Positions 50,628-61,117 of a stretch of DNA of 64,000 nt are shown here, piece by piece. Within the stretch, counting starts at the first letter, position 1; every line of letters starts with the position of its first letter. The position numbers were made by a program, and so were the translations under genes. The stretch lies in contig JBHLLT010000012.1 in NCBI GenBank assembly GCA_048938855.1, positions 1 through 64,000 on the forward strand, written 5' to 3'. This DNA is from Promethearchaeota archaeon. GTDB lineage: Archaea > Asgardarchaeota > Lokiarchaeia > Sigyniarchaeales > SOKP01. The notes below the pieces were generated by a model. The model was not told the DNA's origin. It did not search any database and worked only from the letters and a program-made list of their open reading frames with translations.

Positions 50628-51434
50628 ATGATTATAATGGAAGATAGAATTGATTCTGAAATAACATTTCCTTATTTACGACGATTCAATTTAATTATGG
50701 GCATCTTACACCTTATTCAAGCAAGTCTAATGTTGACCTTAGCATTAGTAATTCCTCAAATCAGAGATTTTGAGCTCCCAATTACCACTGCATTTTTGGA
50801 ATATATTGATCCTCCTGGTATCTTAGCTCCAAATTATACTCAATTAACTACTATTCCTATAGGTCCAATTGTTTCCTCATTTCTGTTTATTTCGTCAATT
50901 GCTCATTTCCTAATCGTATTGCCACGCGTGAATGATTTTTATAACGAAAAACTGAAACAAGGAATCAATTATTTCCGGTGGTTTGAATACGCTTTAAGTT
51001 CATCTGTAATGATTGTATTAATTTCAATGTTTTTTGGTGTGTATGACTTAGGAAGTTTAATTGTAATTTTTGCTATCAATGCTACTATGAATTTAATGGG
51101 ATTAATGATGGAAATACACAATCAAACAACTGAAAAAACAAGATGGACTGCTTTTTACATTGGGGTTTTTGCAGGGATTATCCCTTGGGTGATAATTTTA
51201 GTATATTTATTCGGTAATGGGAGTTTTGGTGAAATTCCGTGGTTTGTTTGGGCAATTTTTGGCTCTTATTTCTTTTTCTTTAATACATTTCCAATTAATA
51301 TGATCTTGCAATATAAAAAGAAAGGGAAATGGCGAGATTATTTATATGGAGAAAGAGGATATATCCTTCTTAGCTTAATTTCAAAAACTCTGTTAGCATG
51401 GCTAGTATTTGCTGGAGTATTACAGCCAGCATAA
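50628..51434 (+). CDS. Heliorhodopsin
   Basis: LRRFNL..GILHLIQ, NYFRWFEYALSSSVM, FPINMILQY, GERGYILLSLISKTLLAW (retinal-binding Lys). Confidence 0.95.
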   Translation: MIIMEDRIDSEITFPYLRRFNLIMGILHLIQASLMLTLALVIPQIRDFELPITTAFLEYIDPPGILAPNYTQLTTIPIGPIVSSFLFISSIAHFLIVLPRVNDFYNEKLKQGINYFRWFEYALSSSVMIVLISMFFGVYDLGSLIVIFAINATMNLMGLMMEIHNQTTEKTRWTAFYIGVFAGIIPWVIILVYLFGNGSFGEIPWFVWAIFGSYFFFFNTFPINMILQYKKKGKWRDYLYGERGYILLSLISKTLLAWLVFAGVLQPA

Positions 51435-53788: not shown

Positions 53789-54337
53789 TTAATCTCTCGA
53801 TTCAAATAGATTCACCGATATATCAAGGAGATCTCTACTCGTTTTTCCTTCCTTTATCATTTTTTCAATTTTTTTATTAACTTTATCTTTATCTCCGTTG
53901 GCAAGTGTAATTAAATTCTTCACATTCCAATTTTGATATCTTTTAGAAAGCCCTTGGAAAAAAACCGGAGCGGGGGACATCATGGGTTTTTGAGGTTGTT
54001 CTGGAACTGCTTTACACATCCCAGCTTCTAAATCCAGAAATTCACATTCACTACAAGAATTAATGTTTTTTTGTTTAGCACATTGATTAATTGGACAATC
54101 CATTCTTTCTTGACAACCTGGGCAGGTGGGATAGTCTTTTAAAAGATCTAAAGTGTTTAAAAATCCCGAGAAATTATCTTTATTAAATTCTGGGTTAAAC
54201 ATTAAAACTACTCCTTGGATCATAGGGTCTTCAAAAACTTTAAATAAATATTTTGCTGAATCTTGCATCTTGGTTGTATTACTATCACATAAATCACAAT
54301 TTAAACCGCATGTAGTTATTTCATAATCCTTTGTCAT
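53789..54337 (-). CDS. DUF3795-like Cys-rich protein
   Basis: CGLNCDLC, CPGC, CPINQCA...CSEC. Confidence 0.8.
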   Translation of the reverse strand: MTKDYEITTCGLNCDLCDSNTTKMQDSAKYLFKVFEDPMIQGVVLMFNPEFNKDNFSGFLNTLDLLKDYPTCPGCQERMDCPINQCAKQKNINSCSECEFLDLEAGMCKAVPEQPQKPMMSPAPVFFQGLSKRYQNWNVKNLITLANGDKDKVNKKIEKMIKEGKTSRDLLDISVNLFESRD

Positions 54338-55672: not shown

Positions 55673-56566
55673 ATGGATGATAAAGACTTAGAACTTCTAA
55701 AGTTATTGTTGTTTGATGGCCGAATGACTTATGAATTAATTGCAAAAAAGCTTAAACTAACTCCCTATCTAGTTAAGAAAAAAATCCAAAATTTAGTTGA
55801 TATGGGAGTAATCATGAAATTTACAACTAATCTCAATTTCTTGATATTTCAAAAATCAGTTTGTTATACTCTTGCTGAGGTAAAACAAGGAACAGATCAG
55901 CAAGAACTTATTGAACAATTAGGGAAGTTGGATGAGGTTACGGGCGGAGCGATTTCTCTTCAAAATAAGATGCAGATAATTCATATCTATTCTGATGATT
56001 ATGAGTTTAAAAAAAATCTTGAGAAATTCATGCAGCATGATGAAGTATTAAACACTGAAAATTTTATTCTCCTTATCCCTCCAAATTTAGGCTTTAAAAA
56101 TACTAGGTTAATTAAAACTGATTGGAAAATTATCAATTCTATAAAAGATAATTGCAGAAAAACTGATATTGAAATTGCGAATGAGTTAGGAATTTCTTCT
56201 AAAACAGTCAAGCGAAGGTTAGATTATCTGAGAGAAAATAATATAATTATTTTTATGATAGACCTTGATACTAGTGCAGCGGATTTCTTATCGTATCTTT
56301 TAATCGTTAATTTTCAAAAAATTGCATCAGAATCACTAAATAAAGTTGGGAAAATTGTAAAAAATTATTTCTACATGTGGAAAGTTGCAAATCAAGAAGC
56401 ATTTATTTATACAGTATTCATAGAAAAATTAAGAGATATAGATGAACAAGTTAAGGAAATTGAAAAAGTTCCCTATGTGAAAGAAGTTATTAGTTACGTT
56501 CCAACTAAAATGTTCTATTTTAAGAATTGGATTGATATACTAATTGAAAATAATGTTATTGATTAA
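55673..56566 (+). CDS. Tandem (double) Lrp/AsnC-type regulator
   Basis: MDDKDLELLKLL..DGRMTY and DWKIINSIKDNCRKTDIEIANELGIS.KTV.RR HTHs. Confidence 0.88.
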   Translation: MDDKDLELLKLLLFDGRMTYELIAKKLKLTPYLVKKKIQNLVDMGVIMKFTTNLNFLIFQKSVCYTLAEVKQGTDQQELIEQLGKLDEVTGGAISLQNKMQIIHIYSDDYEFKKNLEKFMQHDEVLNTENFILLIPPNLGFKNTRLIKTDWKIINSIKDNCRKTDIEIANELGISSKTVKRRLDYLRENNIIIFMIDLDTSAADFLSYLLIVNFQKIASESLNKVGKIVKNYFYMWKVANQEAFIYTVFIEKLRDIDEQVKEIEKVPYVKEVISYVPTKMFYFKNWIDILIENNVID

Positions 56567-56590: not shown

Positions 56591-59500
56591 TTAAGCTTCA
56601 GGTATTAAGATCACAAATGAATCTCCTTCAACCCATATCTTTCCATCATATATATTTAATACCCGCTCAACCAAAAGGAAACCTAGAATTATTTCCTTTA
56701 TTTTGCTGTCCTTTTCCCATTCTTTCTTAAATATCAGTTTTTTCCCAATATTGGAAATCTCTTTTTGATAATCAATAAATTTTATTTTAATAAAGTTCAA
56801 GCCATCTTCTAGACTTCTAATTATAATAATTTTAATTTCTATTGTTGGATTTCTATTATATCTTATCGAACTGATTAAGATATTGACAAGAACATCGACC
56901 AAAAATTTATCCGCTTTAACATACAATTCTTCATGTGGTTGTTCAACGGATATATTTATTTTTTTATTAGAATAGCTATTTGTAATAAATTCTATGACGT
57001 TTTGAATTACACTATTTAAATTTACTGATTCAATTATTACATTGGTTTCATTAATTTGTCTTAATTTTTGAATGATATATATTAATAATTTCGCATTAAT
57101 GCATTGATCTTTAACATATTCTAATAAATCGCTTTTAGATTTTAATAAAATTTGATTTTCTTGTTTATCAAATGCGTCTATATGAGATTGCATGCTTTTT
57201 ATTATATTATTTATATCATTTACAAATAATTCCTTGTAAAAATATTCTCTATCAAAATCTTGGTGTATATTTTCTAGACTCAGACGTAAATTCTCTTCAG
57301 CTTGTCTACGTAAAATCACATTTTTTAGAATATCAGAAATAATGCTTAGCAATTCTAGATTATCATCTAACCAATGGTTCTCAGGTGTAATATTATCAAA
57401 CCAAATTAAAGCTTCTAATTCTCCATTAATCTTTATTGAAAAAGTTAAAAGATTTTTAATTTTATGAATTTCCAGAAATGTCTTTAACTTAATTGCAGAT
57501 TTAGAAAGATTACGTATATTTTTAACATATAAATAATCGATATTTTTTAATTCTTCAATCAAATATGGAAAATTACTAATTTTAATCTCTTCAGGTAAAC
57601 TAACTTGAGGGTACAACAGTTTACCGTACCACATATAGCCAGGTTTTGGGAAATTGAGATTATTGTTAAAGATATAAAGACAGGCTCGTGCAGCATTAAC
57701 AAATTCACCGATATCTCTAAGAGAATCTATCATTGCTTGATCAAAATCTGTTATTCCTACAAATCTAGATACAATTTTGGTAATGACTGCTTTTAACCTA
57801 GATATTTTCATCAATTCCTGTTCAATTCTTTTTTCTTCCGTTATATTTTGATATATTATTTGATAAAATGTTTCATCTCCAATATCAACAACAGAGGTTT
57901 GCATATTTACCCAGATGAGATTACCGTTTTTTTGATAAAGTTGAATTTCAAATGGAGGATACATTTTACCTCTCTCTTCACTCTTAAATCTTTTAAGAAC
58001 TTCTACTACATAATCTTCGTGGATAATTGAGAGATCAACAAATTTTCTTCCCAATAAGTCTTCTCTTGAGTAACCTAACATAGTTTCCAATGCTGGATTT
58101 AAATCGACCAATGATCCTTTAGGATCAATTAAAAGTATGGAAAATGGCGATTCTTTAAAAAGATGCCGGAATTTTATTTCGGAATGCTTAAGTTTTATTT
58201 CCGCTTCTATTCTCTTACTAATATTACGAATAATATATTGAATAAGAATTTGTCCTCCCATTTGAACTTCATTTACACTAATTTCTACCGGAATGAGGTT
58301 TCCTGAATTGTCAATAACTTCTAATCTAAATGGAAATGGAGAGTCAAGTTGCTCAAACACTTCCTCATTAAAATCTATATTAATAATGCCACTCAAAATT
58401 TGACTAGAATGCAATCCAATAAAGTCTTCAAAAGGGCGGTGAAACAATTTTTCAGCTTCTTCATTCACATCCATTATTATTCCTGAATTTTTATCAATTA
58501 TCAAAATTGCATCTCTAGCAGCTTTAAATAATGCCTCATACCGTAATTCAGCTATTTTAAGAGCTTCAATTGATGGTTGATATAAACTTAATTGATGAAT
58601 TAATGTGTTATGAACAGTTTCAAGGCAATCTAATACATGCTTTTTATCTAAATAATTTTTTTTAATATCATCAAAATAGTTGAGTATTATTGAGCTAAAT
58701 TGGTTTATAATATTTTTAGGAAATTTTTCATTGTAATATACAATTAATGATAAAGGTAATAATCCTCCTCTAGTACTCTCATTTTCAATATAATCAAAAT
58801 AGATTGCTGCGTTTGAATTTAAATGGGGAAATGGTAGGATTACTGATGCAGGCTTGAGTTCACCTCCTCCAAAAATAAACTGTGATACAGAGATGCTTTT
58901 TATTGATATTAATTCCGGATTTTCAAAAGCATTTTTAGGATGGACTGCTTCGACTTTAACCCCTAAATTTTCATCCCATCGACAGAAAATTATCCCAACT
59001 TCACTTTTTGGGATATATTTATCAACTCTCTCCGCAATTTTAAGTGAAAGCCAATTAAATGCTTCATCTATATTAATGTTTTTCACCGCACTAGTCAAAA
59101 AGGATTTTATTGGTCTTTTGCTAAGTTTCTTTATTCCCATTGCGTCTTCAAGTTCTTTTATATCTGGTTGTGTTAAATCAGCCTTATTGAAAAGGATAAG
59201 AAGAGGTAATTCACTTAACTCTGGCTTACCCGCAATTTCATGTAATAATTCGCGTGCAAATGAGAACTTAATTTTATCAGTAATATCCAATACAAAAATT
59301 AATCCATCTTGATTTTTAAGATAAGGTTTCCATACTTCTTTAACTTTATATTTTCCTGGAATATCATATGTTAATAAAGATACATTATTAACGAGGATTC
59401 TCGATATATCTACATTTAGTGTTGGAAATAACGTTTTTGACACAGATTTTCTTCGGGTTCGAATTATCGTTGTCTTACCTGCTAGCGAAAGTCCAAAAAT

Positions 59501-59962
59501 TAATATCTTTGCTTCTTTTTGTTCAAAAATGACTTTCTCTTCTGGAAAAGATGCATGAAACGAATTTAAAAGCTGCATAATTTCCGTTAATTTCTTTGGA
59601 TCTCCTTTATAAATTCTGGAATTTACATAAAAAGCTTTGAAACCTTCATCAATTTTTTTGAAATCTTCAATAAATCCCTCCAAAAACTTTTGAGCTAAAT
59701 TTGTATTTATTCTGGATTTGCTATCAATAACGAGTGAAATTAAAAGATGCTCATGTCCTGTATTTGAATATTCGCTGGGAATATCGAAGATTAAATTAGC
59801 AGTTTTGAAAGTTCCAAATGTATGCTTGAAAAAACCAGTATCATATAGATCAATCAATAATGGAACTTGTTTAATATCCTCTCTTTCAATTGTATCCGGT
59901 GTTTTTAAAAATATATATGGAGGAAAATATGGATTACGATGACTTAAAACTAGAAACCTCAT
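56591..59962 (-). CDS. Longin-like - Arf-like GTPase - longin-like - PAS - PAS - GAF - degenerate histidine kinase fusion
   Basis: G1 GLSLAGKTT, G2 PTLN, G3 DIPGK, G4 NKAD, G5 SAV; PAS starts YEALFKAARDAI and FRHLFKESPFSI; GAF; degenerate H-, N- and G-boxes. GTG 59974 is an alternative start. Confidence 0.85.
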   Translation of the reverse strand: MRFLVLSHRNPYFPPYIFLKTPDTIEREDIKQVPLLIDLYDTGFFKHTFGTFKTANLIFDIPSEYSNTGHEHLLISLVIDSKSRINTNLAQKFLEGFIEDFKKIDEGFKAFYVNSRIYKGDPKKLTEIMQLLNSFHASFPEEKVIFEQKEAKILIFGLSLAGKTTIIRTRRKSVSKTLFPTLNVDISRILVNNVSLLTYDIPGKYKVKEVWKPYLKNQDGLIFVLDITDKIKFSFARELLHEIAGKPELSELPLLILFNKADLTQPDIKELEDAMGIKKLSKRPIKSFLTSAVKNINIDEAFNWLSLKIAERVDKYIPKSEVGIIFCRWDENLGVKVEAVHPKNAFENPELISIKSISVSQFIFGGGELKPASVILPFPHLNSNAAIYFDYIENESTRGGLLPLSLIVYYNEKFPKNIINQFSSIILNYFDDIKKNYLDKKHVLDCLETVHNTLIHQLSLYQPSIEALKIAELRYEALFKAARDAILIIDKNSGIIMDVNEEAEKLFHRPFEDFIGLHSSQILSGIINIDFNEEVFEQLDSPFPFRLEVIDNSGNLIPVEISVNEVQMGGQILIQYIIRNISKRIEAEIKLKHSEIKFRHLFKESPFSILLIDPKGSLVDLNPALETMLGYSREDLLGRKFVDLSIIHEDYVVEVLKRFKSEERGKMYPPFEIQLYQKNGNLIWVNMQTSVVDIGDETFYQIIYQNITEEKRIEQELMKISRLKAVITKIVSRFVGITDFDQAMIDSLRDIGEFVNAARACLYIFNNNLNFPKPGYMWYGKLLYPQVSLPEEIKISNFPYLIEELKNIDYLYVKNIRNLSKSAIKLKTFLEIHKIKNLLTFSIKINGELEALIWFDNITPENHWLDDNLELLSIISDILKNVILRRQAEENLRLSLENIHQDFDREYFYKELFVNDINNIIKSMQSHIDAFDKQENQILLKSKSDLLEYVKDQCINAKLLIYIIQKLRQINETNVIIESVNLNSVIQNVIEFITNSYSNKKINISVEQPHEELYVKADKFLVDVLVNILISSIRYNRNPTIEIKIIIIRSLEDGLNFIKIKFIDYQKEISNIGKKLIFKKEWEKDSKIKEIILGFLLVERVLNIYDGKIWVEGDSFVILIPEA

Positions 59963-60248
59963 TTTGATATTCACTTATTTTTTTTTAAAATATTCTTTCC
60001 TAATACTAACTTACTGAATTATTGTATTAAAATTTATATCATAAGATTATAATCTATGTTATATTGAAGAGAACAATAAAATCAGATCATATTATTAAAT
60101 TTTTTTGTAAATGAAAAAAATGAACTCATAGTCAATATCAAAAGGATAGAGGAAAAAATCCTTATTACAAACAAAAGTTACTAAAAATTTTAAAGATTAT
60201 CTGGTGAAAAGATTCAAAATTTGATTCTAGGTCTCAAGATAGTGAGTA

Positions 60249-60473
60249 TTAATACCCTTCATTCAATTGATAATAAAATCCTTCATTTTTGAGAATTTTC
60301 AAGATACCATTCTTTCTATATATATTGAAGAGCTTTTTGACCTCAGAAGGAGGTATACCATTATTTTCAGCTATAATTTCGATCATAAATTTAGGAAATT
60401 TCTTATAGCTTTTTTGCAGAGAGTGAAGTGCTTCTAAAAACCTTGCTGAATAGTCTATTTCTGATATAACCAT
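60249..60473 (-). CDS. Small winged-helix-like protein
   Basis: AGGTGAGG SD before ATG 60473; EIIAENNGIPPSEVKKLFNIYRKNGIL...GFYYQL. Confidence 0.65.
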   Translation of the reverse strand: MVISEIDYSARFLEALHSLQKSYKKFPKFMIEIIAENNGIPPSEVKKLFNIYRKNGILKILKNEGFYYQLNEGY

Positions 60474-60661: not shown

Positions 60662-61117
60662 CTAATCATCAGCAAACCAATAACGCTTGCCTTTTTTCAT
60701 CCAATTATCTAAACCCATCTCTTTAATACCTTCAAAGTTTTTTAAATAAGAATCTCCATATAGCTCTTGCTTATTTGTAATTCGAAGTGTTTCACAATTC
60801 TCATATATCTCACATTCATAACAAGCAAAGTACCTTTTACTACGACAACATTTTCTAACCTTACAACTATGTTCAGTATCTTCCTTTTCTCTGCATATCT
60901 TTTCACATTTCAATTCTGTAATGAACTGGAGCATTTCATGAAATTTATCATATTCTTTTAGTTTTTCTGTAAATAAATTCTTCGCGGTTTTTTCAAATTT
61001 GTACTGATTTAATTTGTTTTCTAATTTAATTGCGGCATCAGAAATTTCACCTAAATAACCAGCACAATCTCCACAATAGAGTCCACAATAGGCGAGTAAT
61101 TTTTTACTATCTTTCAT
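60662..61117 (-). CDS. DUF3795-like Cys-rich protein
   Basis: YCGLYCGDC, CEKICR, CKVRKCC, CYEC...C. Confidence 0.82.
   Translation of the reverse strand: MKDSKKLLAYCGLYCGDCAGYLGEISDAAIKLENKLNQYKFEKTAKNLFTEKLKEYDKFHEMLQFITELKCEKICREKEDTEHSCKVRKCCRSKRYFACYECEIYENCETLRITNKQELYGDSYLKNFEGIKEMGLDNWMKKGKRYWFADD

Follow-up and report, generated by a model that had tools for sequence, protein, structure and literature searches.

A Lokiarchaeal fusion of an Arf-like GTPase, a putative built-in GTPase-activating domain and a histidine pseudokinase

How does a small GTPase of eukaryotic type work when it is built into a prokaryotic sensor protein whose kinase appears to be dead? The question is raised by a gene of a Promethearchaeota archaeon (class Lokiarchaeia; assembly GCA_048938855.1) within the first 64,000 nucleotides of contig JBHLLT010000012.1, and this whole stretch is called the window below. 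The gene is an uninterrupted open frame of 1127 codons on the minus strand (56591–59974), which an earlier note, made from the letters alone, had read as an Arf-like GTPase fused to longin-like domains, sensor domains and a catalytically dead histidine kinase. To judge from its residues and predicted folds, the family to which this protein belongs appears to unite an Arf-like GTPase and the GTPase-activating protein (GAP) that acts on it.

We found the domain order to be longin, Arf-like G domain, longin, PAS, PAS, GAF and pseudo-histidine kinase. The earlier assignment of the G domain held: Pfam matched Arf at residues 149–311 (E = 8e-35; 120 bits), well ahead of the competing Ras match (E = 7e-11; 42 bits). 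Pfam further returned two PAS domains, a weak GAF match (748–883) and a weak HATPase_c match (1023–1126). Because close relatives are 1123 amino acids (aa) long and begin there, and because the Atlas record begins at residue 5 (Met5), the start codon is probably the ATG at 59962 rather than the upstream GTG at 59974; residue numbering nevertheless runs from the GTG throughout. The features are as follows.

56591..59962, minus strand: entire gene, 1123 aa if read from the probable ATG (open frame, starts of relatives)
59537..59962, minus strand: N-terminal longin (aa 5–146), NPRL2/FLCN/SMCR8 type (model, Foldseek, motifs)
59762..59764, minus strand: codon 71, arginine-finger position in the strand 4–5 loop, here Asn (model and alignment)
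59027..59530, minus strand: Arf-like G domain (aa 149–316) with G1, G2, G4 and G5 intact (Pfam, fold)
59351..59353, minus strand: codon 208, Lys instead of the catalytic switch II Gln (alignment)
58571..59011, minus strand: second longin (aa 322–468) with Trp333-Asp334, Gly338, and Arg402-Gly403 in the strand 4–5 loop (model, motifs)
58205..58543, minus strand: PAS 1 (aa 478–590), strongly conserved, ratio of nonsynonymous to synonymous substitution rates (dN/dS) 0.10 (Pfam)
57821..58177, minus strand: PAS 2 (aa 600–718) (Pfam)
57305..57787, minus strand: GAF (aa 730–890), dN/dS 0.29, the least constrained part (weak Pfam match)
57020..57262, minus strand: dimerisation (DHp) helices with Asn919 at the phospho-His position, dN/dS 0.23 (alignment)
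56594..56932, minus strand: pseudo ATP-binding (CA) domain, dN/dS 0.09 (alignment, selection)

All of the G-domain and kinase motifs quoted in the earlier note are present where it had placed them. The G domain carries G1 at 161–169, Thr185 as G2, G3 at 204–208, G4 at 263–266 and G5 at 294–296, and its switch II departs from that of Arf at Pro206 and Lys208. Both by sequence and by fold it is closest to Arf, Arl and the Hodarchaeal ArfR1 (Z = 22.9 for Arf6, 20.4 for HodArfR1, ~18 for Rabs and 17.0 for a Loki Rag-like GTPase). Of the switch II signature Gly-Gly-Gln/Arg/Trp, Pro206, Lys208 and Lys212 are departures, while Trp215 and Tyr218 are retained; of the 55 longin-G relatives that stand alone, 16 have the signature complete. 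We detected no N-terminal amphipathic helix or membrane anchor, the N-terminus being taken up by the longin. Having neither this helix nor a complete switch II signature, the domain is called Arf-like here. About 60 open reading frames (ORFs) of the same genome match it. Within the family, the catalytic Gln is replaced by Lys208 in a clade of 53 members (the Lys clade), across which the nucleotide-binding residues are invariant, and by Tyr in a second clade. Replacement of this Gln is known to abolish hydrolysis from the biochemistry of Ras Q61 and Arf Q71. Arf1 Q71L has been named as GTP-locked (PMC8213707).

The domains on either side are longin-like, as had been proposed. Both show the longin order of strands and helices (strand-strand-helix-three strands-two helices) in the AlphaFold model; in these predicted models the first longin matches known longins at Z = 13.5 and the second a Loki longin at Z = 16.2 (root-mean-square deviation 2.3 over 135 residues). 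The reported similarity between the two was recovered, weakly (HHalign 61%, E = 8e-5). For the first longin, which modelled alone reached a predicted local distance difference test score of 94, all 11 Foldseek matches at E ≤ 0.001 were GATOR1/SEA, FLCN, Lst4 or Loki longins. A wide fold search ranked the Loki longin at 13.5, the FLCN complex at 12.8, GATOR1/SEA at 11.8, and Lst4 and C9orf72-SMCR8 at 10.3, with GEF-type longins (GEF, guanine nucleotide exchange factor) at 10 or below. In the predicted model, then, the N-terminal longin is closer in fold to the GAP type (NPRL2/FLCN/SMCR8) than to other longins, a ranking that concerns the first longin alone. Comparison of longin profiles with solved structures by sequence gave chance helical matches and nothing else, and the Pfam Folliculin model matched just 2 of 73 members.

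Longins of the GAP class are marked by an arginine finger and, ahead of strand 2, a glycine-proline (GP) motif; Asgard longins have both (PMC12290439). According to the Avl9 preprint, the finger follows strand 4 and precedes strand 5, and one longin Arg can drive Arf GAP activity (bioRxiv 10.64898/2026.01.05.697756); SMCR8 Arg147 and C9orf72 Trp33-Asp34 are required for Arf1 GAP activity (PMC8213707). In our model, residues 71 and 402 are both placed in the strand 4–5 loop. The second longin has Arg402 at this position together with Trp333-Asp334 at the C9orf72 spacing, and the first longin has Asn71, a position held by Arg in 85 of 130 relatives. The GP motif is absent from both longins of this protein (Pro18-Pro19 and Gly338-Val339); it is present in 46 first and 8 second longins of the relatives. 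The three-domain AlphaFold model had a predicted template modelling score of 0.43, so the packing of the domains is not fixed by prediction, and a complex prediction for the relative P0097 (two longins, GTP and G domain) scored 0.01, which is evidence in neither direction.

Similar longins were seen elsewhere in the genome. A longin-PAS-GAF-PAS protein with GP and Arg intact is encoded on contig C43 (96465–99161); its longin runs directly into a PAS domain resembling PAS 1 of the fusion protein, and the adjoining gene, in tail-to-tail orientation, encodes a separate GTPase fusion with the Gln intact; the two are a candidate trans-GAP pair. Further GP/Arg longins, six or more in number, are encoded on contigs C41, C62, C20, C45, C49 and C91; two of these are joined to G domains, one of which is of Rab-like type.

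We compared the states of the catalytic Gln and the first-longin Arg in 130 fused proteins: 66 had both residues, 19 had Arg without Gln, 45 had neither and none had Gln without Arg. Of the first-longin columns, 19 are conserved at ≥95% in the Gln-bearing rows; the sole one among them to collapse in each of the two Gln-less clades is Arg71, with a retention of 20% and 0%. Arg71 changed 14 times over 4.95 branch-length units in the Lys clade, compared with 0 changes over 20.8 units in the Gln-bearing rows (quick-method tree, midpoint root, eight long-branch rows excluded). Arg402, Trp333 and Asp334 remain at 96–100% in the Lys clade. Four His-bearing rows retain the first Arg, and two rows nested inside the Lys clade carry both Gln and Arg. 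Because Arg71 is lost solely where Gln is lost and Arg402 is unaffected, these results support the hypothesis that the finger serves its own G domain. At the level of sequence, the co-loss pattern points to a native Arf GTPase-activating domain in archaea.

Several observations weigh against this hypothesis. Just two independent Gln-loss clades show loss of Arg, and an independent-pairs sign test of Gln and Arg loss fell short of significance, which it cannot reach because two origins yield too few pairs; the direction was never opposite. The Arg is retained in all 21 longin-PAS proteins without a G domain and in 20 Gln-less stand-alone longin-G proteins, so that it could have a structural role or serve GTPases other than its own. 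Three stand-alone longin-G proteins have Gln without Arg. The GP glycine and the Gly following the Arg were altered before the Gln was lost. The equivalence with SMCR8 Arg147 is based on fold, loop position and motif, not on residue-level superposition. In addition, certain GTPases hydrolyse GTP without this Gln.

Among the stand-alone longin-G proteins, some combine a sound GTPase with a finger-less longin and others a degenerate GTPase with a sound finger (for example, P0139, P0141 and P0144 versus P0146, P0147 and P0149). Such proteins may function as complementary pairs.

The conservation of the second longin raises the possibility that this domain is the working GAP, in which Arg402 would serve either its own G domain, with Lys208 tolerated, or one of the many free small GTPases of the genome, so that the protein would be a sensor-controlled GAP. 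The retention of Arg402, Trp333 and Asp334 in the Lys clade agrees with this possibility, as do the sufficiency of a single longin Arg in Avl9 and the supply of ~60 ORFs matching the G domain. However, Arg402 is independent of the state of its own Gln and so gives no sign of coupling to its own active site, and the Pro of the GP motif is lost from the second longin in most members. Moreover, we found no conserved gene neighbour among 22 relatives, neither a GTPase nor a receiver gene recurring. We regard a second-longin GAP as doubtful, although it is the best placed of the alternatives.

The kinase part is, on its residues, a histidine pseudokinase, its ancestry kept, its catalytic residues lost and its sequence under selection. 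The phospho-His position is Asn919, the second N-box (Mg-binding) Asn is Ser1035, the G1 glycines are all gone and one of the three G2 glycines is left; the pseudo-CA domain retains Asn1031 and Asp1068, and ~9 residues of its last hairpin are missing. Alignment with six intact paralogs of the genome, all of which have the His, Asn-Asn, DNGxG and GxGxG, bore out the earlier view that the kinase is catalytically dead by sequence. Its pseudo-CA domain is as constrained as the G domain (dN/dS 0.09 for both), compared with 0.23 for the DHp helices. Within the dead clade, 49 columns are ≥95% conserved, 17 of them with residues unlike those of intact kinases, and Asp920, directly after the lost His, is invariant. 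The pseudo-CA domain retains a function, probably that of binding.

Across the tree, the kinase motifs form a gradient from near intact to dead, with the phospho-His present in 21 of 107 relatives. For example, P0123 has the His and G1; P0122 has a full ATP site with Tyr at the His position; and P0097 and P0114 have the His, both Asn and G1. Intact motifs are ancestral, and the kinase that the G module joined was therefore one whose catalytic residues were largely present; its decay followed. This qualifies the proposal that a sensor scaffold lost phosphotransfer and was rewired to a GTPase switch: the fusion and, by sequence, the dead kinase stand, but fusion to the G module dates from a time when the kinase retained the greater part of its catalytic residues, as those four relatives indicate. 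Nor does a GTPase switch as output fit well, normal cycling being unlikely because this clade has lost both the catalytic Gln and the arginine finger of the first longin. Tandem paralogs at locus L072 (1861–7916) illustrate two stages side by side: P0097, with a near-intact kinase, both Arg and the Gln, adjoins a 957-aa copy, apparently P0129, in which the Arg of the second longin is lost and the kinase has decayed further.

We lean slightly towards the explanation that the family arose from an ancestral sensor kinase with a self-GAP Arf-like input and that the present protein is a kinase-dead, hydrolysis-poor double pseudoenzyme. In the ancestor, a soluble sensor kinase, an Arf-like GTPase with a GAP of its own would have formed the N-terminal input; the arginine finger would have come from the first longin, as it does from SMCR8, and the Trp-Asp of the second would have helped to hold the switch regions, as C9orf72 does, with the finger acting within one chain or across the kinase dimer. 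In ancestral members, a GTP state timed by the built-in finger could have been passed into the sensor kinase. Kinase catalysis would then have been lost stepwise, and the GTPase of the Lys clade would have lost its catalytic Gln as well; we propose that the finger was free to drift because the Gln had already gone. The present protein may be a soluble rod, dimeric if its DHp helices still pair, and a scan for transmembrane segments found none (best 19-residue hydropathy 1.39). It would bind GTP and hydrolyse it slowly or not at all. Its PAS-PAS-GAF core, in whose PAS domains we saw no conserved Cys hinting at flavin or Fe-S chemistry, would shift shape and thereby move two protein-binding surfaces, namely the G/longin head in its nucleotide-loaded form and the conserved tail made up of the pseudo-CA domain.

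The signal might instead flow in reverse, as in DivL (PMC4211667), with the dead kinase binding a phosphorylated response regulator, or dephosphorylating one, and signalling up to the G/longin head. Besides this precedent, the genome has 13 receiver domains that pass the Pfam threshold, as well as six kinases of the same lineage with intact motifs, and the invariant Asp920 beside the lost His is compatible with such a role. However, the DHp helices, on which a regulator would dock, are among the least constrained parts and the CA domain is the most constrained; the His+4 phosphatase position is variable (Asn, Ser, Thr, Lys, Ala, Leu or Ile); and no receiver gene is a conserved neighbour. We therefore consider reversed flow unlikely.

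The earlier note had suggested that the longin pair may be a built-in GEF, with the G domain cycling as the output switch. Many longin pairs are indeed GEFs, and the longins of DENND1A, Mon1-Ccz1 and TRAPP match the first longin at Z 8–10. These scores are lower than those of the GAP-type longins (NPRL2, FLCN, SMCR8 and C9orf72), which outrank the GEF type in both fold searches; the GP motif is reported missing from GEF-type longins (PMC12290439); and the Arg follows the state of the catalytic Gln, a residue not required for GEF action. Folds and motifs thus favour the GAP type, and a GEF appears quite improbable.

We also examined how widely the architecture occurs. A homolog search gave 182 matches, mostly, where named, proteins of Promethearchaeota (Lokiarchaeota) metagenome-assembled genomes; the full-length matches span 80% to 39% identity. 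Some matches of 70–75% identity are labelled Thor-, Hod- or Heimdallarchaeota, and these labels were not used as host range. The full order longin-G-longin-PAS-PAS-GAF-kinase occurs in 79 retrieved proteins, and a GAF-less version of it in 25; a subfamily of ~950 aa has no GAF domain. Overlapping contig pieces from other studies bridge the domain junctions, with no indel listed within the ORF, although no single contig of those studies spans the whole gene and some bins are uncovered in single runs. The prokaryotic sensor parts are thus truly fused to the eukaryote-type GTPase parts, as first noted, and an assembly chimera is refuted at the level of sequence by ~100 full-length relatives. In a search of 151 genomes of the class, the family was recovered patchily, in 53 of 126 genomes of its own taxonomic family; other families mostly had just a stand-alone longin-G protein of ~320 aa, and one had longin-G-longin without a kinase. 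Among the genomes searched, the kinase-bearing form is confined to its own family. The parts are modular: stand-alone longin-G (n = 66), kinase-free longin-G-longin and longin-PAS-kinase proteins with intact kinases were all retrieved.

Although both enzyme sites are degenerate and the distribution is patchy, the idea of an assembly chimera, or of a decaying gene with idle dead parts, is hardly credible given the ~100 full-length relatives from independent assemblies, the 49 conserved columns of the dead kinase and a dN/dS of 0.09–0.29 in every domain (92 pairs of close relatives; pairs not independent).

Two further loci contain related genes. At L040 (6431–11371), a family member is broken by one stop in its G domain, followed by PAS, GAF and more PAS domains and no kinase. 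At L037 (4411–10905), which belongs to a genome from a different family, a cluster comprises four genes with G domains along with several that are longin-like.

With the Arg and the Trp-Asp at matching positions, the layout would work like the C9orf72-SMCR8 complex on one chain; the likeness is one of layout, and the present protein lacks both the GP motif and the first finger of that class. Like C9orf72-SMCR8-Arf1 (PMC8213707), FLCN-FNIP2 and NPRL2-NPRL3, the family has two longins beside an Arf-type G domain, an Arg in the strand 4–5 loop, a Trp-Asp three residues ahead of the GP glycine and a matching fold. Unlike those complexes, this putative GAP module is a single chain without DENN C-lobes, with an Arg in both longins across the family and a fused PAS-GAF-kinase body, and the present protein lacks the first finger and the Gln.

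Longin-sensor and longin-GTPase fusions in Asgard archaea are already published; their full combination apparently is not. Asgard NPRL2-like longins fused to two-component domains were described by Liu et al. (bioRxiv 10.1101/2020.10.19.343400), in passages that join the same class of longin to PAS and kinase domains and mention neither a GTPase within the fusions nor a dead kinase; a figure of that preprint may show the present architecture. Our literature search, outside which that figure lies, did not find the full architecture. Longin-GTPase fusions of MK-D1, 'Rag-like but close to Arf', were reported by Tran et al. (PMC10933270), and GP and arginine-finger motifs in Asgard longins in PMC12290439; both leave open which GTPase is the partner. 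In the present family, by contrast, a longin stands on either side of the GTPase, and a sensor-kinase body follows. Of the Asgard ArfR/AArf proteins (bioRxiv 10.1101/2024.02.28.582541, PMC11914678), Hodarchaeal ArfR1 is, with Arf and Arl, among the best sequence and fold matches of the G domain, which differs from that group in lacking the amphipathic helix, in having Pro at the first Gly of G3 and Lys at the Gln position, and in belonging to a soluble multidomain protein. DivL shares the PAS domains and dead kinase core and is itself without a GTPase (PMC4211667). The actinobacterial conservons (PMC13343842) likewise bring a kinase, a roadblock-family regulator and a small GTPase into one pathway, but as separate genes, with a roadblock and an active kinase. 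An Asgard kinase paper names one His-less kinase and no GTPase fusion.

Regulators of Asgard Arf-like GTPases have not yet been identified (Zhu et al., PMC11914678), and which GTPase the Asgard GP/arginine-finger longins serve was left open (PMC12290439); the family joins both gaps on one soluble chain. Tentatively, and with somewhat less than even confidence, we suggest that those of its members which carry the Gln correspond, in Archaea and on one chain, to the C9orf72-SMCR8-Arf1 GAP complex, with a working finger under PAS/GAF control. If so, an Asgard Arf-related GTPase would for the first time be matched with a native GAP, and the GAP chemistry of longins on Arf would be older than eukaryotes and have been wired into a two-component scaffold. 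The family offers natural controls, with members that have Gln and Arg, members that have neither, and kinases from near intact to dead. The present protein, at the decayed end of this series, would chiefly provide the negative control and an example of two pseudoenzymes maintained by selection.

Around the fusion gene, an Lrp/AsnC-type regulator with two helix-turn-helix domains (55673–56566, plus strand) is convergent with it, 24 bases apart, and is not a conserved neighbour. Upstream lies an ORF of 74 aa (60249–60473, minus strand) whose ribosome-binding site is clear and whose product weakly matches the N-terminal part of a NuoE-type 2Fe-2S thioredoxin (E = 0.001). A promoter and terminator scan remained at chance level, its consensus being bacterial and unfitting for this host. 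Cys-rich DUF3795 proteins are encoded on each side of the fusion gene (53789–54337 and 60662–61117, both minus strand), and a heliorhodopsin with a full-length Pfam match (326 bits) is encoded at 50628–51434 on the plus strand.

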